Below, piece after piece: positions 13,120 to 39,793 of a stretch of 42,047 bases of DNA. Positions within the stretch are counted from its first letter, which is position 1; each line of letters opens with the position of its first letter. This DNA comes from a virus, in IMG/VR virus record IMGVR_UViG_3300045988_015706. One strand, given 5' to 3'. Made by a program: the position numbers and the translations under genes. The notes under the pieces were generated by a model that saw nothing but the letters and a program-made list of their open reading frames with translations, was not told the origin of the DNA and ran no database searches.

Positions 13120-13292
13120 TATTCTTCCTTGTTGTTATTCTTTTCGACGGTTCTTCGAGGCTTAACAGGCTTTGCAGTTGCACTAAGGAGACCCAGTTCC
13201 TGAGCCTCCTCGGGGGTAAGCTGATACCCCCACTTGTGCACCTGACAGAAGTAAGTAGTCTCGTAAGCCTTCTTTACTTCTTCAATGGTCAT
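13119..13292 (-). CDS. Small hypothetical protein (57 aa) between the capsid and tail tube A genes
   Basis: MTIEEVKKAYETTYFCQVHKWGYQLTPEEAQELGLLSATAKPVKPRRTVEKNNNKEE. The ATG lies 1 codon after the capsid TAA-TAG double stop, and its TAA overlaps the gp11 ATG (TAATG). It is below the 60-aa cut-off of the ORF track. Confidence 0.4.
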   Translation of the reverse strand: MTIEEVKKAYETTYFCQVHKWGYQLTPEEAQELGLLSATAKPVKPRRTVEKNNNKEE

Positions 13293-13295
13293 CTA

Positions 13296-14297
13296 TTAAA
13301 CCTGAGCTTCCTTGACAAAGATACCAACGGCTTCAGGACGAAGACCACCGTGACCCATCGCGTACTTGGCAATGATCTGGTCAGCCTGATATTCGGCTCG
13401 ACGAGCACGTTCCATAGCGAGATCCTTGAGCTTCACCGTACCAACAGCGGAACGATGGAAGACAATACCCTGAAGACCCGCAGTCTTGATATTCGTATTA
13501 AGAGCATGCTTACCATCAATACCATCATTCAGGAGGTGCGGAACTTCAATGACTTCAAAGCCACAAATCGTCTGGAGCTTGCCCGTGTTCGGATCAAAGA
13601 GGGCATGATAGTTAGCCGCATCAGGCATAAGAGCCTTCATGACAGCAGAGTAGCCTTCAGGCGTGAGAAGGCAATAGCGGTCACCCTGCGGGACGTAGTT
13701 CTTCGTCATCTGGGCACGAGCCGCAAGGAGACCCTCAAGGATCTTATTGCCATACGTAGCTTCCTGCGTAACATCAAGACCCGTAACAAACTCAAAGGCC
13801 TTACCCGTACCGAGAACCTTGTCGGCACCCGTACCATTGTCGGGAATATTGCCATCCTTGAACGTAGCGTCCTTAGCGGCCTCATTGGCAAGCTCATTGA
13901 TAATAGCACAGTCAGCGCCCATAGCGAGAGCTTCACCAAGCTGACGGGAATACTCAACTCGAACGTCGTAATGGTTCATCGCATCGTCGATATCCGTGAT
14001 AAGGCAGTCAGCCGTAAGGAGACCGTCAATGGCGATGACACGTTCATTGTGTTCCATCTTCTTACGCTGGTCATCAAGGGAGTTACCCGGAGCAAGATAC
14101 TTAGCACGGGTACGACCCATCACAGCGAACGAAGCGGACTTACCATGAGAGATAGTACGCACCTGATGACGAGACATCATAACGGAGGTGCGAGCAAAAG
14201 CAGTCAGAACTTCACCCGTGAAGACCTTCATAAAGAGTGCATCACGATCGCCCGCAGATAGAGCCTGACCAGGATTGGAAATACCAGTAGCAGCCAT
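13296..14297 (-). CDS. Major capsid protein (T7 gp10A-like)
   Basis: 333 aa. FTGEVLTAFARTSVMMSRHQVRTISHGKSASF...LAPGNSLDD...IAIDGLLTADCLITDIDDAMNHYDVRVEYSRQLGEALAM closely matches recalled T7 gp10A. Confidence 0.97.
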   Translation of the reverse strand: MAATGISNPGQALSAGDRDALFMKVFTGEVLTAFARTSVMMSRHQVRTISHGKSASFAVMGRTRAKYLAPGNSLDDQRKKMEHNERVIAIDGLLTADCLITDIDDAMNHYDVRVEYSRQLGEALAMGADCAIINELANEAAKDATFKDGNIPDNGTGADKVLGTGKAFEFVTGLDVTQEATYGNKILEGLLAARAQMTKNYVPQGDRYCLLTPEGYSAVMKALMPDAANYHALFDPNTGKLQTICGFEVIEVPHLLNDGIDGKHALNTNIKTAGLQGIVFHRSAVGTVKLKDLAMERARRAEYQADQIIAKYAMGHGGLRPEAVGIFVKEAQV

Positions 14298-24125: not shown

Positions 24126-24213
24126 TGGTACCCTAGGAGGGAATCGAACCCTCACGAGCCTTGCTTCTCCACTGATTCTAATTCAGTTGCGTATACCATT
24201 TCGCCACTAGGGT
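24126..24213 (-). tRNA. tRNA-Leu: tRNA-Leu (anticodon UAG), class II with a long variable arm, CCA encoded
   Basis: The minus strand reads ACCCTAG-TG-GCGA..., an anticodon stem-loop ACTGA-ATTAGAA-TCAGT, a long variable arm, the T arm GAGGG-TTCGATT-CCCTC, then CTAGGGT-A-CCA. The 7-bp acceptor stem is perfect. Confidence 0.9.
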
Positions 24214-24350
24214 ATTTTTCTGTGGGGTAACCGTTGCCCCTTCGGATCTATTTCGGTAGACATCCTATTCGGGAGCTACCCGACCTCCTAAGAGCCGCAG
24301 GACTTCCTCACTTCTCCTATGATGAGAGGAGTACAATCAAACAGCGTATT

Positions 24351-24427
24351 TGGTCTCTCCTACAGGATTCGAACCTGTGACCGTATGCTTAGAAGGCATA
24401 TGCTCTATCCAACTGAGCTAAGGAGAG
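24351..24427 (-). tRNA. tRNA-Arg: tRNA-Arg (anticodon UCU), CCA encoded
   Basis: CTCTCCT-TA-GCTC-AGTTGGATA-GAGC-A-TATGC-CTTCTAA-GCATA-CGGTC-ACAGG-TTCGAAT-CCTGT-AGGAGAG-A-CCA. This is a canonical cloverleaf. Confidence 0.92.
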
Positions 24428-27213: not shown

Positions 27214-27240
27214 CTCTCCCTAGGAGTATGGATTTTATTA
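27214..27240 (-). promoter_or_regulatory. Phage RNAP promoter (distal copy, 8 nt after the RNAP stop codon)
   Basis: Identical to 27163-27189. Predicted +1 is 27220. Confidence 0.85.
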
Positions 27241-27247
27241 GTTGGGG

Positions 27248-29884
27248 TTAGCTAAAGGCGTACATGGACTCCTTGACTCGCTCAAGATCAAGGTTTCCCT
27301 TAGAGGGAATCTCAGGGAGCTTGTCGACCATCTTAGGAGACAAAAGGTTTTCAATGTGGTCATGAAGATCCTGCAGTACATCATTCTTGCTGTAGGTATC
27401 TACAAACACTTCCCTAACGGTCGTGAACATGATGTCACCATGTCCTGCAGGTGCCCCATAGGAGTCATGAATCATCGCAAAGGACTTAACCCCCTTGTCG
27501 ACACAAGAGCACACCGTAAGCATCAAATGGGACGCATCCATGCTATGGACATAGTTGGGTGCAATACCCTGCTTCTGCTTTCGGGTGTCAATCTCGGGGG
27601 TACTTTCGTACACCACGGGGTTGATAGAGGCACCTTCCTCAATCTGGCTGTCTTCCTTGAACGGCTCCTTGACTCGAATGGTTCCAGTAGTAAACGTCCT
27701 GAGTTGCTTGAGCACAACTTTGTTGTACTTCTGTTTTACAGGGAATCCTGCAGGGGTAATCCAATAGGTAGGCAGACTTTGACCGTTAATGTCCTTGTCC
27801 TGAGCGAGGAGGCCACTTGCAACCTGTAGCCAACCCATAGCCTCCACAGCTTTCACTACGACCCCTTGCAGGGCTTCCCAGATCAATCCAGCCATATACC
27901 TAGCGGACTGGCTAGGGCGACTGAAGGCCGTGGGATTCTTTGAAAGAGCGGGGTAAATAGTGTCTTCCAAAACCTGTTCGGCAAAGCCAAATTTACTAGA
28001 GCCATAGCAAAGCGTCATGGTGCTACGCTTAGTCACCTTACGGGTAACTCCGTGCTTGAGCCATTCCGTGGCCATACTGCGGGTGCCCTTCTTCAGGTAA
28101 TCGTCACCGTCTTCAGTTTTAGCCATGGTGTCGTCGGTACCATTGTCATAGTCCTTTTTAAGGAGTTCGGTGACCTTGATAGCGACAATGCCATAGATGT
28201 CATGAACATGATCGTCAGGCATGAGGTTGACAGCTTCCCCACCGACTTCATCCCTTAGCATCGCAGAAAAATGCTGTAAGCCAGAGCAGGAGCCATCAAA
28301 GGCAATCGGGAGGTGAGACACGTAAGAGTCACCCTTATCCAGATAGTCCGCCCACTCAAAGCAGAATGCAAGGAATTCCCAAGGTGAATCCGTCTCAGTC
28401 CATCGGAGATCCTGCAAGGGATCCTTGGCAATAGACAGAATCATGTCGGTGTTCTCATAGACCCAAGCAATACGCTCTTCAAAGGGTTTCTTGTCAAGGC
28501 CGTAGCAGTTAGCACCCTGAAAGGCCAGCCAAGTATGCCCATTCTCACCAAGAGGCACCCCCTCGGCAAACTCGAGTAGCGACTTAGTAAAGTCGTTGCC
28601 TTGAGGGCTCAACTGGGTCAAGGGATAGACACGACCACGGAAATCAAGATTGTGGGGGAAATAAATTTCCATGTCGTCCTTGTAGGTGTTTGCCAGTGCT
28701 AGGACACCATTGACAAGATAACGCTTGCTCTTACGCTTATTGTCGTCTTGATAGTAGTGCACCATAGCACTTCGCCAATCACGATGGACCTCCTCGCTAG
28801 TGTCTGCCTCTGCAGGCCTCATAGGAGGCTCCGCAGGGATCGCAGAGGGCATCTCAAGGCCCTCAGGAATGTGAGCCCATGAGCACACCTCATTGGCCAC
28901 GTCGAGCACTCTACGATTGATCCTCCAAGCCGTAGACTGGATGGCATTGACGGCCTTATACACGTTAGGCATGTCAACCTCATCGTAGAGCTGTGCACAC
29001 TCCTTAGAGGGCATTCTAACAAGCTGTATGGGTTTCTTAAGGTTGATCAGGTAACCACCATCAAAAGGGGTAGTCCACGACTTAGGAGGGATCACCATGG
29101 GCCGATTTTGGAACATGAGACTAGCCGTTTCCTTATCCTCGTGTTCCAAATACGTCAACACGTCAGGGTCAAGACAGAAAATGTAATGTACGTTTTTGTT
29201 GTCACTCATGGTTTTCTCAAGGGCGCCTAAGCCAGTAGACACGATGAAAATATCTACCAACTTAAGACCTACTTGCACTCTATTAGCGTTACCCCACTTG
29301 TTCCATCTCTTGAGTCTCTTTTCGTCTGCAAGGATTTTTTCTTTGTTTTCAACATAGCGCTTTTTGAACTGCATGGAAATACGCTTATCAAGCCCTGCAT
29401 TGAACCTGCTAAGCTCTTTCTTGTCCATGGTTGCAACTACCATCTTGAATCGAAGTTCATCCTCAATAGCTTCACCAATTGCAGAGGACAATTTGGTTAA
29501 AGACACGATTCCAAGGGAATTTTCAATGATGGTTCTAATTGCAATGAACGCGATTTCTTCGGTCGACAGAGCCCGAATGAGGGATGCCATCACGTGACGC
29601 TTACCGGGCTTTCCAGTATCAACATCCTTAAACCACTTGTCAAGGGCCTTAGTCATGACAGGGATGGCTTCACTGATCAAGACACGACTTGCACCCATAT
29701 TACCAATAGTACCGCTTTCAATGGCCTTATTACGCTTAGACATGAAAGCATTGAAGGCATTTTCCTTGCTTTCAAGTTCTAATTCAATTTCCCTGTCTAC
29801 ACGGGCTTTGCCGTATTTAAGACAAAGCTCATCGTATTCATTTTCACCATCAATTCTAAAACTATTCAATTTATCATAAGACAT
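27248..29884 (-). CDS. Single-subunit DNA-directed RNA polymerase (T7 gp1-like)
   Basis: 878 aa. Conserved T7-RNAP blocks include ...PIAFDGSCSGLQHFSAMLRDE..., ...VTKRSTMTLCYGS..., ...NYVHSMDASHL..., ...FAMIHDSYG..., and the C-terminus ...SMYAFS (T7 ends ..DFAFA). Confidence 0.98.
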   Translation of the reverse strand: MSYDKLNSFRIDGENEYDELCLKYGKARVDREIELELESKENAFNAFMSKRNKAIESGTIGNMGASRVLISEAIPVMTKALDKWFKDVDTGKPGKRHVMASLIRALSTEEIAFIAIRTIIENSLGIVSLTKLSSAIGEAIEDELRFKMVVATMDKKELSRFNAGLDKRISMQFKKRYVENKEKILADEKRLKRWNKWGNANRVQVGLKLVDIFIVSTGLGALEKTMSDNKNVHYIFCLDPDVLTYLEHEDKETASLMFQNRPMVIPPKSWTTPFDGGYLINLKKPIQLVRMPSKECAQLYDEVDMPNVYKAVNAIQSTAWRINRRVLDVANEVCSWAHIPEGLEMPSAIPAEPPMRPAEADTSEEVHRDWRSAMVHYYQDDNKRKSKRYLVNGVLALANTYKDDMEIYFPHNLDFRGRVYPLTQLSPQGNDFTKSLLEFAEGVPLGENGHTWLAFQGANCYGLDKKPFEERIAWVYENTDMILSIAKDPLQDLRWTETDSPWEFLAFCFEWADYLDKGDSYVSHLPIAFDGSCSGLQHFSAMLRDEVGGEAVNLMPDDHVHDIYGIVAIKVTELLKKDYDNGTDDTMAKTEDGDDYLKKGTRSMATEWLKHGVTRKVTKRSTMTLCYGSSKFGFAEQVLEDTIYPALSKNPTAFSRPSQSARYMAGLIWEALQGVVVKAVEAMGWLQVASGLLAQDKDINGQSLPTYWITPAGFPVKQKYNKVVLKQLRTFTTGTIRVKEPFKEDSQIEEGASINPVVYESTPEIDTRKQKQGIAPNYVHSMDASHLMLTVCSCVDKGVKSFAMIHDSYGAPAGHGDIMFTTVREVFVDTYSKNDVLQDLHDHIENLLSPKMVDKLPEIPSKGNLDLERVKESMYAFS

Positions 29885-30033: not shown

Positions 30034-30060
30034 CTCTCCCTAGGAGTATGGATTTTATTA
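30034..30060 (-). promoter_or_regulatory. Phage RNAP promoter immediately upstream of the RNAP gene itself
   Basis: TAATAAAATCCATACTCCTA|GGGAGAGGGTG is a perfect match to the 27.2-kb copies through +7. Predicted +1 is 30040, 156 nt upstream of the RNAP ATG. Confidence 0.85.
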
Positions 30061-33117: not shown

Positions 33118-33296
33118 GCCCTCAAGTGAAAAAATACCGTAAACATGGTATCCCCTCCCCTAGTGTCTCAGCCCTCTCTATATAGAGGCTAGCTAGCTAG
33201 CAGAGGAGCCCTGTGGAGAGCTGTGGAGAGCTATGGTCTACCTAAAGGAGTACCAAAGGATACAAAGCACAGATAATGCCACCCAAAGGCAAACAA

Positions 33297-33335: not shown

Positions 33336-33367
33336 TGTGGACAACCCTGTGGATAACCTGTGGATAA
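33336..33367 (-). promoter_or_regulatory. Three tandem DnaA-box matches (TTGTCCACA, TTATCCACA, TTATCCACA on the minus strand)
   Basis: On the plus strand: tgtggacaa 33336-33344, tgtggataa 33348-33356, tgtggataa 33359-33367. Spacing is 12 and 11 bp, and all are co-oriented. Confidence 0.6.
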
Positions 33368-33438: not shown

Positions 33439-33467
33439 TTGACAGCCCTTTGAATCTGTGGTATAAT
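33439..33467 (+). promoter_or_regulatory. Perfect-consensus sigma70 promoter on the PLUS strand (opposite to every gene)
   Basis: TTGACA (33439-44), a 17-nt spacer, TATAAT (33462-67), with TGg giving an extended -10. It is back to back with P2; the two -35 hexamers are separated by 16 bp. Confidence 0.65.
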
Positions 33468-33500
33468 CAAAGACCCCAAAGGACACAGCGGGAGCCCGCA

Positions 33501-33533: not shown

Positions 33534-33615
33534 GCACGTGAACTCCTTAAGTGAGGGTTCACAAATTTGATCAATTTTTATGATCCCCTTGGTTACCTGT
33601 GCTAGCAAGAGCTAG

Positions 33616-33639
33616 CTGTGGATAACCTGTGGATAACTT
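33616..33639 (-). promoter_or_regulatory. Pair of perfect DnaA boxes within a 24-bp exact repeat of 33347-33370
   Basis: ctgtggataacctgtggataactt occurs identically at 33347-33370 and 33616-33639. The boxes are at 33617-25 and 33628-36. Confidence 0.6.
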
Positions 33640-33706: not shown

Positions 33707-33905
33707 ACACATCTAGCAGTAAGGGAACCCAAGGGGGAACTGGAAGTAATCACAAACTAGCAACAAGAGTACGTAGGAGAGCATCAACAGTAGTCACATC
33801 CCCGTTAAACAAAGACATTATAAAGAGGATGATGATAATGATGATTTTGATGGTGATGAATACTTTATTTTTAGTGTTATTGGTATTGTTCATTAAGGTC
33901 ACTCC

Positions 33906-33990
33906 CATAAGGGTCTATAGGCACCTAAGGATTCCCATAAGGGTCTATGGACTCTCATAAGGGTCTATAGATCCCCATAAGGGTCTATAG
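33906..33990. repeat. Four direct copies of cataagggtctat(a/g)g at 30/20/20-bp spacing
   Basis: Copies start at 33906, 33936, 33956 and 33976. The array is flanked by two cctaaggatt copies (33924, 33995). Confidence 0.9.
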
Positions 33991-34060
33991 GTACCCTAAG
34001 GATTTTCTTAAGACTCCATCATCACTGATACCTTTTACTTCTGATACTTTCATTTCTAAC

Positions 34061-34121
34061 AAAAAGGGGGAGCTAGAAAAGACCTATATGTATATCTATA
34101 TATGTCTTTCCTAGCCCCCCC
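34061..34121 (-). terminator. 18-bp RNA hairpin plus U5, starting exactly at +1 of the phiOR-like promoter (T7-type terminator-like, or a small RNA)
   Basis: The minus RNA reads GGGGGGGCUAGGAAAGAC-[20-nt AU loop]-GUCUUUUCUAGCUCCCCC-UUUUUG. It forms 16 Watson-Crick plus 2 G-U pairs. The two G-U positions would be A-C mismatches in a plus-strand RNA. Confidence 0.7.
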
Positions 34122-34141
34122 TAGGAGTATGGATTTTATTC
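34115..34141 (-). promoter_or_regulatory. Phage RNAP promoter downstream of the terminase gene (phiOR-like)
   Basis: GAATAAAATCCATACTCCTA|GGGGGGGCTAGG. Predicted +1 is 34121. It lies 83 nt after the terminase stop and points into the non-coding junction region. Confidence 0.8.
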
Positions 34142-34223: not shown

Positions 34224-35516
34224 TCATTTCTTGAACACGTAGCCTTTATCCTTATATCTGTCTACACCATTAGAGGTGTCCTTAGGGCTGTGTTTATCTT
34301 CAGTAACCAGCACACCCCCGATATTGGACGTATAGAATCCATATAGGGACTCCATAGACTCCTCTAGCCATTCTTCAGTTAATTCTTTAATACCTTCATC
34401 AGCATCTACGCCCATGAAGTCCACAAGGTATTTAACTCCGATTGCCAGAGCATCGAGACGGTCATCATGAATAAGGGCACCCCTATCAACAGTGATACGA
34501 GTGAGCTGATAGAAACAAGCATATTTGTAGTCAGATTCGGGTACAGTAGAGTAGTCATTCCTGATGCACTCAGGAGTGACACACATTTTATGGTTAGAGA
34601 TTACAGGTTCAAGAGTGTCGATGATTCGGAGTTCTTTTTGTCCCGTAGACTTGACTTCAGTAACCCCACAGTTACTATAGGTTTTCTTTAGTACAGGTTC
34701 AAAGAGTTTGATGTACATACCATCACCGAAGTTTCCTTCAATGACTACTTCATTGACTTTGTACTTCTTAGCCACCTTAGCTAGCTTATTGAGGACTACA
34801 TCAGAGTAGCCTCCCAATAGACCTCCTACTTCCATGACGTAGATATACCCATTTAGGTAGTAGAGAACAGCATAACCTGTTTCGTCTTTACCACGCCCTG
34901 AGGGGTCAACGCATAGGATCTTATGGGCATACGGGACTACTTCATTGGATGAGGCATGATAGTAGAAGTAAGAATCTCCCTTAAGGCCCATTGTAGGACA
35001 CTCATCAACTGGAACCCTCTTAGAAGGCTCAGGGAGCCACGTGAGCTTCATTGGAGCCTCGTCTAAGGGGAACATACCTACGATGAGGTCACGAAGCCGT
35101 AGAGGGTATTTATCGGCGTCTGAGAGGGCCGTATCAAGCATGAACTGCAGAGCGAAGCCTGCCTTACGATAAGATAGTTCACGCTTCTGTAGATCTTCTT
35201 CAGAGAACCTAAGGGGGTCTGTGGGCTTACCTGCCCAACGCTTAGGGTCCTTGTCGTACTTGTCAGCAATGATAGAGGCCAATCTATCGCCATAGGAGGC
35301 TCTATGAGAATCATCATAGGGGTACCTAGCGGGATAGATTACAGCCGTGTATCCGCGCTCCTGTAGCTCGTTATAGAGGCTCATTTCATTCTGGGGAGTG
35401 CCCAGATAGATGATCTTTTTACCTTCACCAGGCTTTAGGACAGCGTCGAACTCTTTGACAAGTTCAAATAGCTGGTCTCTAAGAACCTGAGTGAAGGAGT
35501 TAGATGGAACTTCCAC
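34224..35516 (-). CDS. Terminase large subunit (T7 gp19-like), exon 2 (nuclease/C-terminal part)
   Basis: It begins VEVPSNSFTQVLRDQLFELVKEFDAVLKPGEGKKIIYLGTPQNEMSLYNELQERGYTAVIYPARYP, colinear with recalled T7 gp19 ...VEIPSNS...LVQEFAALLKP...VIYLGTPQTEMTLYKELE. The track's M is really a GTG Val codon with no SD. Confidence 0.9.
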   Translation of the reverse strand: MEVPSNSFTQVLRDQLFELVKEFDAVLKPGEGKKIIYLGTPQNEMSLYNELQERGYTAVIYPARYPYDDSHRASYGDRLASIIADKYDKDPKRWAGKPTDPLRFSEEDLQKRELSYRKAGFALQFMLDTALSDADKYPLRLRDLIVGMFPLDEAPMKLTWLPEPSKRVPVDECPTMGLKGDSYFYYHASSNEVVPYAHKILCVDPSGRGKDETGYAVLYYLNGYIYVMEVGGLLGGYSDVVLNKLAKVAKKYKVNEVVIEGNFGDGMYIKLFEPVLKKTYSNCGVTEVKSTGQKELRIIDTLEPVISNHKMCVTPECIRNDYSTVPESDYKYACFYQLTRITVDRGALIHDDRLDALAIGVKYLVDFMGVDADEGIKELTEEWLEESMESLYGFYTSNIGGVLVTEDKHSPKDTSNGVDRYKDKGYVFKK

Positions 35517-36296
35517 CTTTATGTTAAGGTAAGGTCGTTAGTCTTACCCCATCGTCTTTTATTTGAGTCTACTGCGTTTTCAGTAGCAGTAACAAACTTA
35601 CAATGATCCCTAGAGTAGAGTCCACAGTTGCCCTTCTTGATGTCCTTATCAAGGTGCATGCTAGAGTCCTTTTCCCATTCTTCATAGCCTTCTACCTCGT
35701 GAATAGTATTCAAGAAGGTAGTAAAGTTATGCCACCTAGGATCTACCTTACAGCCTACATAGCTAGTTTTGTAGTTACCATAAGCTCTCTTAAGCATGTT
35801 AGCCCACAGGTCATAGATCTTGCGGATGATGCTATTAGAGCCTCTAGCAGGGATTCTAATAGGAGACCCAATGAACCCTACACCATAGACCGTAGGTTCC
35901 ATAAAGTCTTCAAACTTACCTGCCTTAATGTTGCAGGTCTGAACATCAATGACTGTACCTGTCTTGACAAACTGAATGACAGCCCTAGGATGCTTAACTT
36001 TACCATTAGGAAGTTTCTGCTTCTTAGTTCTAGACAGGATCTTAATAAGACCCTTAGGAGTTTCGTAAGTTTTGTTAATTTCGTACATAGTTATGTTCCT
36101 TATAATTGACGATGCTTCATATCTCTATGAAGACCAGACTATATCTTATACCAAAAGGTATCCCCATTTTTCGAGTCACTTGACCCTACATAATAGTCGT
36201 TACACCTGCTATAAAGCTCGGCTCGGTATTGTCTTTCCTAGTTAGGACTGAGTTCCACCGAATTTAAGGGGTTTAAAGACGACATGGTTAAAGTTT
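35517..36296 (-). mobile_element. Putative group I intron (780 nt) with an HNH homing-endonuclease ORF
   Basis: Exon 1 ends ..AGACGAU. The intron's 5'-CCAU-GUCGUCU-3' gives P1 (7 bp, U-G at the splice site) and an adjacent P10 (CCAU:GUGG of exon 2). The terminal intron nt is G, and an in-frame stop follows 2 codons into the intron. Confidence 0.7.
35519..36088 (-). CDS. HNH-family homing endonuclease (putative), intron-encoded
   Basis: 189 aa. VYGVGFIG...IYDLWANMLKRAYG...CKVDPRWHNFTTFL... and the C-terminal HLDKD..(9)..YSRDHCKFVTATENAVDSNKR resemble phage HNH/AP2-type homing nucleases. The stop codon is 2 nt from the 3' splice site. Confidence 0.6.
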   Translation of the reverse strand: MYEINKTYETPKGLIKILSRTKKQKLPNGKVKHPRAVIQFVKTGTVIDVQTCNIKAGKFEDFMEPTVYGVGFIGSPIRIPARGSNSIIRKIYDLWANMLKRAYGNYKTSYVGCKVDPRWHNFTTFLNTIHEVEGYEEWEKDSSMHLDKDIKKGNCGLYSRDHCKFVTATENAVDSNKRRWGKTNDLTLT

Positions 36297-36773
36297 ATCG
36301 TCTGCGACAATGATGTCTGCACGGGAACCCGTTAGCTGGCCCTTAATACCAACAGACTTAACTGAAGGTGAATGGTCTGGTAGGGCAGGGCCCACATCAA
36401 AAAGGTTCTGAGTATCTCTTTGACCTTCTCTAGCCTTTAGGTGGCTCAGAAAGGGCAATTCATTGATGATTTTCTTAATAAACGTAGCATTAGCGTCTGC
36501 TCGTTCTTTGTTAGCAGACACTACCATGATCTTAGTCTGTGGATCCCTCCAGAGACTCCAGACAACGTAAGCACACGTAATAAAGGATTTAGCTACACCA
36601 CGGAACCCCATAAGGATCATTCGGTCACTAGGGGGGTTCTGTAGTAGCTTAGCAATGTCTACCTGCAACGTGGTAGGAGAAGGCAACCCGATAGATTTCC
36701 AAACCAAAGAGGTAAATAGAGGGAAGTTCTCATAGTAGGGGAGTAGGGCTTTAGCTTCTTTCTCAGTTAACAC
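36297..36773 (-). CDS. Terminase large subunit (T7 gp19-like), exon 1 (ATPase Walker A/B)
   Basis: GTG start with a GGGGAGA SD. ...[62 protein letters not shown]...[28 protein letters not shown] is near-identical in pattern to recalled T7 gp19. Confidence 0.9.
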
Positions 36774-37660: not shown

Positions 37661-39793
37661 TTACATACTCTTTCGTTCGTTAATCTCAGCCATCTTGGCA
37701 TCGTTCATTCGGGAGTTACCGTTGATGTTAGAGTATCCCAAATAACCACAGACACGGGAAATGACAGACAGGTTACTAGAGCCACAATAGGGGCACGTAT
37801 TACCCACATTAAAGCTGTGCTGATGACAGTCCTCACAGTAAGCCGCATCAAAGTTCACACCCTGATAGAACCCATGAGCCATACCTCGAAGGATCGTATT
37901 CATGAGAGCGAGTTTGTTCTCTGGGTTGTCGATACGGACATACTGGATGTGCCCACCCTCAATAAGATGGAAAAGCTCAAACTCAAGATCCTGCTTTTCA
38001 AAGGGAGTAATGTCGGCAGACACATGGATATGGAAGGAATTGGTGAAATAGGACTTGCCCTCAAATTCATCCTTAAGGTTATTCTTTGCACAATACTCAT
38101 GGTACTGAGTCATCTGAGTTCCGCAAAGGGACTCTGCAGGGGTACCATAGAGTGCATAGAGATATCCGTCTTCCTTCTTAAACTTCTGCACTTCATCATA
38201 GATGAACTTAACGACATCCTTAGCCGCCTTCTGTCCCTCAGGGGTCTGAAGATCCTTACCCCCAGTAAAGAGGATAGCAAACTCATTCAAGGCAGAGATA
38301 CCAAAAGATGCTGTCATATACTTGGTAAGCTCACCTACCTCATCTTCAGGCTTAAGAAAGCCCTTATAGAAACCTCCCTGACAGAATGCCATAGGATTCG
38401 TGCTAGCCTTAGCATGCTTAATCATATCGTAGCGACGTTTAAGGAATTCTCGAATCTGTTCAAGGTTCACCATAAGCTCTTCCCAGAAGTTACCCTTAGA
38501 TGCCTTATAGATCAACGGGAGGTTGAGAGACACGGCCCCAATGTTGCATCGCCCAACAGACACATACTCGTTAGTCTCAGGATCCTTCCAAGGAGTGAGG
38601 TATGCCCTGCAACCCATCGGATGGATAACACACTGCTTATTCGATGCTCTATAGGTTTCAGACACAGTGCCATTAGGAGCGTTAATAGCCAGAAAATCAG
38701 GGTACATACACTTACTGGAACATTCAACAGCCTTCTCGAACACGTTAGCGTGCTCATCACTGCCGTGTTGTTCCCAATCATAGAGATACACGAGCTTAGG
38801 GAACACAACCTGTTTACCCCCATGGCCTTTCATGCGGGTCTCAAGGATGGTCTCACAAATCACCTCAAGAAACTCCTTGTCATACTCAGGGAGATCATTG
38901 CTCCACTCACCAAACGTAAGCGTAGTGAATGCAAAGTCACCACGAGAACACGGAACAGTGTTTAGCTTCAGTTCAAGAGACTGGAAGCCCTGCCCCAACT
39001 CACGCTTGAGTTCTTGCATAGCCATTGCGCATGCTTCATCGAACTCCATATTGCACTGGTCAAAGTATTTCTTAAACGCATGGTCATACGTTTTCTTAGC
39101 ATACGGGAGGAGCGTCTTGTCAATCTGAGGGATAGTGAATCCACCAAACTGCTGTGCAGTAGCTACAAGGGTGATGTCACCGATCACCTGAAGGGCACTA
39201 AGGACACTCGTAGGCTCCGTATAGGTGACATTGGACATACTAAAGCCACCCTTCAGAACAGTAGCCATGTCAAAGAGACAGCAGTTGATGGATCCAAAGA
39301 TCATGTCTCGAAGGTCATGGATGTAATACTTACCAACCTTAGTAGCCTCTTTCTCTTCCTTAGTGAGGTAGAATTGCTTATACAGTTGCTTAGTCAGATA
39401 GCCCTTAATGAGGGAGCCTTTGGTAGACACAAGGGAACTATCGAAGTTGGCGTTTTCCTTGTCTCCCAAAAGGAGGACAGTGTCTGCCTCATTCTTAACA
39501 GCTTCGAAAGCCTTAGCGTAGGTGTTCTTATAGTCTCTAAACTCCTTATAAGATTCTCCGATCTTCGGTGCGTACTTACAAAGAGCTTCAATGACAATAG
39601 AGTGGAGCTTATCAGTAGGCACCTCAGCATAGTTGCTGTAGACAATGCTCTCGATATAGCCCCTAATCTTACCAATGTCATACTCAGAGTACGTAGCGTT
39701 AGCCCTCTGGGCGGCCTTATGAATAGCTACTTCAATCTTGTCCCAATCCCAGCCTTCGTGGGTACCATCTTTCTTAATTACTTCCAGTTCCAT
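37661..39793 (-). CDS. nrdD: Anaerobic (class III) ribonucleoside-triphosphate reductase
   Basis: 710 aa with an N-terminal ATP-cone-like segment, a C-terminal Zn-ribbon (CEDCHQHS...CPYCGS) and the glycyl-radical motif RVCGYLG. Confidence 0.92.
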   Translation of the reverse strand: MELEVIKKDGTHEGWDWDKIEVAIHKAAQRANATYSEYDIGKIRGYIESIVYSNYAEVPTDKLHSIVIEALCKYAPKIGESYKEFRDYKNTYAKAFEAVKNEADTVLLLGDKENANFDSSLVSTKGSLIKGYLTKQLYKQFYLTKEEKEATKVGKYYIHDLRDMIFGSINCCLFDMATVLKGGFSMSNVTYTEPTSVLSALQVIGDITLVATAQQFGGFTIPQIDKTLLPYAKKTYDHAFKKYFDQCNMEFDEACAMAMQELKRELGQGFQSLELKLNTVPCSRGDFAFTTLTFGEWSNDLPEYDKEFLEVICETILETRMKGHGGKQVVFPKLVYLYDWEQHGSDEHANVFEKAVECSSKCMYPDFLAINAPNGTVSETYRASNKQCVIHPMGCRAYLTPWKDPETNEYVSVGRCNIGAVSLNLPLIYKASKGNFWEELMVNLEQIREFLKRRYDMIKHAKASTNPMAFCQGGFYKGFLKPEDEVGELTKYMTASFGISALNEFAILFTGGKDLQTPEGQKAAKDVVKFIYDEVQKFKKEDGYLYALYGTPAESLCGTQMTQYHEYCAKNNLKDEFEGKSYFTNSFHIHVSADITPFEKQDLEFELFHLIEGGHIQYVRIDNPENKLALMNTILRGMAHGFYQGVNFDAAYCEDCHQHSFNVGNTCPYCGSSNLSVISRVCGYLGYSNINGNSRMNDAKMAEINERKSM

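Follow-up and report, generated by a model that had tools for sequence, protein, structure and literature searches.

In bacteriophage T7 the promoter phiOR, annotated also in T3 and K11, is a consensus promoter located between the gene for the terminase large subunit (terL) and the gene 19.5-type open reading frame (ORF), upstream of the terminal repeat, and in T7 it sits 549 bp before that repeat. It is a secondary replication origin, and every T7 origin requires a promoter (PMC8373140). phiOR is employed as an origin with short primers stimulated by lysozyme (bioRxiv 2024.07.25.605042), and in T7 with altered RNA polymerase (RNAP) specificity it was among only five promoters that evolved, i.e. 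it is under selection (PMC6171733). Class I terminators of T7 RNAP consist of a stable hairpin with oligo(U) directly after it, and transcription stops mostly at the next G; termination can be leaky, since T7 genes 11 and 12 depend on read-through of the terminator Tphi (PMC2952870). Here we describe an element in which a promoter of the first kind is fused to a structure of the second kind. It lies on the IMG/VR virus record IMGVR_UViG_3300045988_015706, a stretch of 42,047 nt that was analysed at its full length and is called the window below; it represents the complete genome of a T7-like phage in circularly permuted form, and its genes all lie on the minus strand. We consider it slightly more probable than the contrary that the element is the counterpart of T7 phiOR bearing a leaky intrinsic terminator or attenuator of class I (Tphi-type) that would act on the phage RNAP, as judged from its sequence. 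We know of no described T7-like phage in which the +1 position of phiOR is the first base of a terminator hairpin.

The minus strand from 34141 to 34060 reads GAATAAAATCCATACTCCTA up to the start site and then GGGGGGGCTAGGAAAGAC-ATATATAGATATACATATAG-GTCTTTTCTAGCTCCCCC-TTTTTG. The parts of the element are:

34122-34141, minus strand: phiOR-like phage RNAP promoter GAATAAAATCCATACTCCTA, about -20 to -1, assigned from its consensus copies and its position after terL
34104-34121, minus strand: 5' arm of the hairpin, GGGGGGGCUAGGAAAGAC, the first 18 transcribed nt, from folds and pair counts
34084-34103, minus strand: loop of the hairpin, 20 nt
34066-34083, minus strand: 3' arm of the hairpin, GUCUUUUCUAGCUCCCCC, from the fold and pair counts
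34060-34065, minus strand: UUUUUG tract directly 3' of the stem, the predicted class I termination point
34090-34110, minus strand: phiOR-proximal box GAAAGAC-ATATATAGATATAC, which covers the upper 5' arm and the greater part of the loop, assigned by homology

The 19-mer core of the promoter, AAAATCCATACTCCTAGGG, has five copies in the genome (0 expected), every one of them on the coding strand; four are exact and the fifth has one mismatch. Alignment with T7 TATA/GGGAGA, where the stroke marks the start of transcription, places +1 at the G at 34121 on the minus strand. The phiOR-like copy continues with GGGGGGG and the remaining four copies with GGGAGAG. The layout is that of T7 phiOR: terL ends at 34224, +1 is at 34121, a small ORF occupies 33908-33750 and terminal-repeat-like sequence follows. 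As in T7, a G-rich transcribed start precedes a homologous box. Thus in promoter consensus, in position and in promoter-proximal homology the element is a phiOR homologue at the level of sequence. A sequence-only reading of the window had called it phiOR-like, and that label is borne out by the shared position and by homology of the promoter-proximal sequence to T7, T3 and VP4.

The same reading had proposed that the promoter is fused at +1 to an 18-bp hairpin and a U5 tract, and we confirmed both the coordinates and the pair count. Positions +1 to +18 pair with +39 to +56 through 16 Watson-Crick and 2 G-U pairs; read-through transcripts can form one extra A-U pair, and the stacked helix comprises 19 + 5 bp and one 1x1 mismatch. 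Folding of the sense RNA gives -37.5 kcal/mol (z = -6.7, with 0 of 200 shuffles as good), compared with -31.2 kcal/mol and two mismatches for RNA of the opposite strand. In a scan of the whole coding strand for hairpins ending at a T-run, the element ranks first (-35.4 versus -21.3 for the runner-up). The predicted RNA from +1 to the end of the U tract is about 61 nt long. On the opposite strand no U-run follows the stem, and the terminator form is therefore one-directional. The Rfam 15 covariance models gave no match at the gathering score, just sub-threshold generic miRNA-precursor matches at 34057-34130.

With a stable sense-strand hairpin and oligo(U) directly after the stem, the element has the form of a class I terminator. 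Under identical folding conditions its stem of 18-19 bp reaches -37.1 kcal/mol and is followed by UUUUUG, while that of T7 Tphi, which ends GGGGUUUUUUG, measures 15 bp at -28.2 kcal/mol, with UUUUUUG after it. phiKMV has an annotated terminator just ahead of its terminal repeat; at -28.2 kcal/mol it too is less stable than the window element. An earlier suggestion that the element is a terminator is thus upheld as far as form goes: it fits the class I definition (PMC2952870) and is more stable than Tphi. Like Tphi, it has a GC-clamped stable hairpin, oligo(U) and then G, and leakiness, whether designed or implied, is common to both. The two differ in place: Tphi comes after the capsid gene, the window element after the terminase gene. 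Unlike in Tphi, the first base of the stem is the promoter +1, so that the element's own transcript would end after about 61 nt, and the loop is large (20 nt) and carries the conserved box. The phiKMV terminator resembles the element in its long-stem hairpin with U5 and in its place between the last late gene and the direct terminal repeat; unlike the element it has no fused promoter and no phiOR-type box, and it belongs to another subfamily with another gene order.

Megablast against GenBank phages gave a single partial match to the window, and relatives were therefore located through the terminase protein. The nearest records are uncultured phages from human faeces, and dozens of related contigs were found in IMG/VR and in ENA gut metagenomes. 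We compared the sequence downstream of the terminase gene at 80 related loci. The window's own lineage was defined by terminases 95-98% identical and comprises 18 distinct IMG/VR alleles and further metagenome alleles; the sister lineages of this gut clade are named below by their terminase identity as the 87%, 75% and 69% groups.

The phiOR-like promoter is kept in every member of the window's lineage, and the stem and U tract are present in all of its alleles, which come from dozens of independent gut metagenomes. Every allele measures 61-62 nt from +1 to the final G, and a U-run of at least five is found in 16 of the 18 IMG/VR alleles. Pairing holds at 95.9% of stem positions across the lineage. 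Variation at five pairs is confined to G-C, G-U and A-U, every transition observed in the stem preserves pairing, and the few breaks are transversions. The two wobbles had been taken as a sign that the structure is selected on one strand. This was borne out in about 20 natural alleles, in which all wobbles are G-U on the minus strand and never A-C, and both G-U sites become G-C or A-U in some genomes. Covariation of the stem in relatives had been put forward as a check: pairing is kept with G-C/G-U/A-U switches, there are no double changes, and one common allele carries an uncompensated change.

In the mechanism we propose, the short stem of the gut-phage clade would have lengthened to 18 bp and gained the U5-6 G tail in the window's lineage. 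The hairpin would end late transcripts emerging from the terminase gene and would truncate most phiOR-initiated transcripts at about +61. Only the read-through fraction would then reach the sequence further downstream, whose features are:

34025-34047, minus strand: two GTATCAG copies just 3' of the hairpin, present also in the 87% sister lineage
33904-34003, minus strand: about five 20-bp repeats of the CCTATAGACCCTTATGGG type, between the hairpin and the 19.5-like ORF
33750-33908, minus strand: small hydrophobic ORF of 47-52 aa at the position of T7 gene 19.5, with no consensus phage promoter of its own
33269-33274, minus strand: invariant ATCTGT, preceded by GTTTGCCTTTGGGTG, in 26 distinct alleles whose flanks vary

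The terminator would have to be leaky, since neither of the conserved features beyond it, the 19.5-like ORF and the invariant ATCTGT, has its own consensus promoter. For the same reason the description of the element as a self-contained unit was not sustained. The ORF is conserved across the gut-clade lineages, and its motif SLxNGDVTTVDAL compares with SLTGDLSSLESV of T7 gp19.5. It had no match in PHROGs; we believe from its sequence that it is probably homologous to T7 gene 19.5. Similar repeat arrays occur in the sister lineages. The array and the GTATCAG copies may be binding sites for a packaging or replication protein.

We infer promoter activity, termination, leakiness and any role in replication or packaging from these features, and several points weigh against the terminator reading. 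Termination is deduced from form alone, and the G7 start might favour slippage or abortive synthesis over productive transcripts. Two alleles have an interrupted U-run. In the common allele B, CUCCCCC in the 3' arm is replaced by UCAACC with no compensation, which leaves 13 + 2 pairs around an internal loop at -22 kcal/mol and weakens the stem where it abuts the U tract. Full terminator strength is therefore inessential. No double compensatory changes were found in the lineage, at a divergence so low that the shuffle control is uninformative, and a test of transition bias on the stem is weak (p ~0.02-0.05). The 87%, 75% and 69% groups have no U tract, and the long stem and U tract are not found in the cultured T7-like phages T7, T3, K11, VP4 and gh-1; a terminator at this place would thus be no general requirement. 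In those five phages, which have neither a stem around the box nor a U tract, phiOR transcripts would run into gene 19.5. Finally, conservation within the element is highest in the loop box, which a terminator leaves unexplained. This conservation points to a role at the level of DNA or sequence, or one linked to initiation, as an origin or packaging determinant that predates the hairpin.

The box, GAAAG..TATATAGATA, has homologues immediately 3' of phiOR in T7, T3, VP4, K11 and the Ralstonia phage phiITL-1. The annotated phiOR of T7 reads TAATACGACTCACTATA followed from the start site by GGGAGAGGAGGGAC-GAAAGGTTACTATATAGATAC, where GAAAGGTTACTATATAGATAC occupies 39243-39263 of T7, and the counterpart in the window is GGGGGGGCTAG-GAAAGACATATATAGATATAC. 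The box occurs once in the window genome (0.17 expected), is present in all gut-clade lineages and is near-invariant within the window's own. At the 80 related loci the promoter sequence is lineage-specific; common to all are a G-run at +1 and, 10-15 nt later, a AAAGGTATATATAGRTAT-like core. The loop had been described as alternating AT. It is indeed AT-rich, but it is not a mere alternation: by sequence comparison it is the ancient phiOR-proximal box, the most conserved and oldest part of the element. We found no earlier description of a box downstream of phiOR in the literature searched. A scan of IMG/VR with a T7-type box pattern was uninformative on its spread: about 110 of 120 matches arose by chance, many of them in GIY-YIG coding sequence (GKVYIG), and the genuine matches were only T7, phiA1122 and the gut clade.

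The stem around the box has a shorter history. In the gut-phage clade the first 8-10 transcribed nt pair with a pyrimidine-rich segment beyond the box; the stems of the 87%, 75% and 69% groups have 7-10 bp and are of other sequence. MAFFT and RNAalifold over the gut-clade lineages returned no consensus structure. Loop indels kept the 3' arms from aligning, and duplex tests per lineage were therefore used. In the gut clade outside the window's lineage, the tests support an enclosing stem (Fisher p ~1e-3 against a shuffle null and 0.03 against genomic background); on T7, T3, K11, VP4 and gh-1 they found none (p = 0.54 and 0.98). Judged from these sequences, the element has three layers: an ancient promoter and box, a short enclosing stem at the level of the clade, and the 18-bp stem with its U tract in one lineage only. 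A further locus considered as a phiOR with no hairpin, L276, was rejected as an unrelated chance match to the 19-mer.

The conservation of the box speaks for an alternative that we regard as unlikely, if the least unlikely of those weighed here, namely that the element acts as DNA in replication or packaging. The box and G-cluster would form a promoter-dependent origin or a pac determinant with the U/T tract incidental, and either a hairpin formed by the inverted repeat in the displaced non-template strand would stabilize an R-loop or open complex, or the repeat would act as a cruciform. The box sequence is conserved from T7 to Ralstonia and gut phages and the arms are not; phiOR is a documented secondary origin, a promoter being essential to every T7 origin (PMC8373140), and its use as an origin with short primers has been described (bioRxiv 2024.07.25.605042). 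Extrusion would be favoured by the AT-rich centre and by the stable hairpin of the sense DNA strand (-18.3 kcal/mol, versus -14.1 for the opposite strand), a displaced sense strand would show equal tolerance of G-T pairs, and assemblies frequently break precisely at the palindrome. However, T7, T3, K11, VP4 and gh-1 carry the box with no stem, so the hairpin is unneeded for the conserved function; co-transcriptional folding of the RNA would oppose retention of an R-loop or primer; the T-run directly after the stem, kept in nearly all alleles, is left unexplained; and no contig terminus at the hairpin suggests a physical end over an assembly break.

The constant length of the predicted RNA bears on two further proposals. 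In one, which we hold to be improbable, phiOR has been turned into a dedicated non-coding unit whose functional output is the ~61-nt RNA or its synthesis across the AT box. The RNA could then be a primer or R-loop trigger for replication of the right end, or a cofactor or marker that licenses concatemer processing, and the terminator would mainly fix its length, which is 61-62 nt in all alleles.

Short 5'-proximal stems elsewhere in the genome and the clade raise another possibility, on which we are equally doubtful: that the hairpin protects the 5' end of phiOR transcripts, or that host RNase III cuts its helix of about 24 bp and so defines the 3' end of the terminase mRNA, or both. The stem-loop of the T7 phi10 leader stabilizes transcripts. 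In the window other promoters also have 5'-proximal stems (GGGAG..CUCCC at 27236 and 27185 and a 16-bp stem at 30056), the short stems of the clade have no U tracts, the stacked helix extends to 19 + 5 bp, and a putative RNase III site is annotated in the right-end region of gh-1. An 18-bp GC-clamped stem with U5G nevertheless exceeds what a stabilizer needs and fits the form of a terminator. T7-type RNase III sites typically have an internal loop, unlike this nearly perfect stem.

Still less probable, in our view, is an abundant trans-acting small RNA, with the ~61-nt hairpin RNA itself as the product in regulation, as a decoy, or as a cofactor of packaging or priming. A strong consensus promoter feeding straight into a terminator-like structure would yield a discrete, stable RNA, and its constant 61-62 nt from +1 to the final G would suit such a product. 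Against this, the RNA has no Rfam family beyond the sub-threshold miRNA-precursor matches, the unit is limited to one narrow lineage, the older DNA box accounts for the loop sequence, and neither a target nor a partner came to light. It is very improbable that the palindrome is neutral or of recent origin and lacks a function: its restriction to one lineage of 97-98% terminase identity, the lack of double compensatory substitutions and the degraded lower stem of a common allele would agree with this, but all true members of the lineage, from dozens of independent gut metagenomes, have kept the palindrome, the stem transitions all preserve pairing, and the sister lineages have shorter enclosing stems of different sequence.

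The sequence-only reading had also placed the element at the genome junction. This was not supported, since T7-like landmarks put the hairpin probably 0.45-0.85 kb upstream of the junction; an analysis of the same landmarks suggests that the terminal repeat begins near 33560 and ends near 33473 or 33275. In T7 the concatemer junction (CJ) carries a class II signal, ATCTGTT. Like the window element, this signal would halt the phage RNAP, or make it pause, in the region of the right end or junction; unlike it, class II signals are sequence-specific and hairpin-independent. The class II core ATCTGTT is not in the element, nor anywhere on the window's coding strand. About 790 nt downstream of the hairpin, however, lies the invariant ATCTGT listed above, whose seventh base in the window's lineage is G, A or C and never T. 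In this comparison (loci L046, L053, L057, L060 and L081), the 75% and 69% groups have the full ATCTGTT about as far from terL. Sequence in this part of the window is similar to interior and edge portions of T7-type terminal repeats, and the left end of T7 carries the ATCTGTT junction signal. From its sequence, ATCTGT is a candidate counterpart of the T7 class II pause signal and would mark the right edge of the terminal repeat. The hairpin is not a replacement of the junction signal, an idea that we rejected since the invariant ATCTGT stands at the homologous place in the window's lineage.

An analogy had been drawn between the element and the hairpin implicated in T7 concatemer processing. 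The two share an inverted repeat in the right-end non-coding region, and beyond this the analogy is weak. The T7 processing hairpin is said, in work by Chung, Nardone and Hinkle in 1990, to lie close to the terminal repeat and not at phiOR +1. Unlike that 'hairpin end', reportedly a DNA intermediate, the window element starts at phiOR +1, and its wobble pattern fits folding of RNA or of the sense strand. We also considered the hairpin as a physical genome end and found this unsupported: related contig ends lie mostly in downstream repeats such as DnaA-box pairs, or exactly at the palindrome, and the breaks at the palindrome are probably assembler artefacts and not physical ends. Several independent assemblies (among L267, L268, L271 and L282) break exactly at the G-run/hairpin, and one contig has the promoter and G-run at both ends.

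The element is a lineage-specific twist on known parts and not a new kind of element, and if the hairpin is solely a terminator the finding is useful but ordinary. The origin or packaging function of phiOR is still poorly defined in T7, and the box is a candidate for its core. A natural promoter fused at +1 to a Tphi-like terminator would, if active, be a compact self-terminating unit for a T7-type polymerase, and class I termination or attenuation could be studied on the natural series of allele A, allele B and the interrupted U-runs. In addition, phiOR, the box, the 19.5-like ORF and ATCTGT are landmarks that help to orient the abundant T7-like genomes of the gut and to find their ends.

Other features of the genome refer to three further genes:

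34224-35516, minus strand: C-terminal part of terL, with its 3' end at 34224
27248-29884, minus strand: gene for the single-subunit RNAP
13296-14297, minus strand: major capsid gene

No hairpin-plus-U (Tphi-like) terminator was found after the major capsid gene (13120-13295, minus strand). This gap holds GC-rich stems with no U-run and possibly a short ORF.

Directly 3' of the RNAP gene, two identical consensus promoters lie 51 bp apart within a 51-bp tandem duplication (27236-27167, minus strand). This is the position of the T7 primary origin promoters phi1.1A/B, and the transcripts from 27236 and 27185 each begin with a GGGAG..CUCCC stem. Another consensus promoter is located upstream of the RNAP gene itself (30056-29974, minus strand), with +1 at about 30040; in LUZ100, too, a phage promoter immediately precedes the RNAP gene (PMC10134795). 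Downstream of this promoter the window has GGGAGAGGGTGAAAGAGGCTATAGAC, a sequence similar to the phiOR box, and also a hairpin of 16 bp (30025-29974, z = -3.4), one pair of which changes to G-U on the sense strand in relatives.

All four perfect DnaA-box 9-mers of the genome (TTATCCACA) lie in the end-proximal non-coding region, at 33336-33367 and 33617-33636 on the minus strand. They form two tandem pairs with 11-bp spacing, accompanied by one copy with a single mismatch, and several related contigs end there; titration of DnaA or use of host initiation are possible roles. A perfect sigma-70 promoter (TTGACA-17-TATAAT with an upstream TG) at 33439-33467 on the plus strand faces the junction, away from the early genes. 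It stands back to back with a forward early promoter at 33422-33393 on the minus strand, and a second perfect forward promoter follows 300 bp on (33117-33089, minus strand). The backward promoter is reminiscent of the leftward A0 promoter of T7.

In the region of the middle genes, tRNA-Leu (anticodon TAG) and tRNA-Arg (TCT) at 24126-24427 on the minus strand are the only Rfam matches at the gathering threshold. The terL gene is split into an N-terminal part at 36288-36773 and the C-terminal part given above, and between the two lies an ORF for an HNH endonuclease (35519-36088, minus strand). A full-length group I intron match in this gap (36115-36374; 44.5 bits, E = 8.6e-10) falls just below the gathering score. 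In some relatives (L064, L067, L069 and L071-L074) the terminase match breaks elsewhere and is followed by structured-looking sequence and another ORF, and mobile introns thus appear to occupy several sites in terL of the gut clade.

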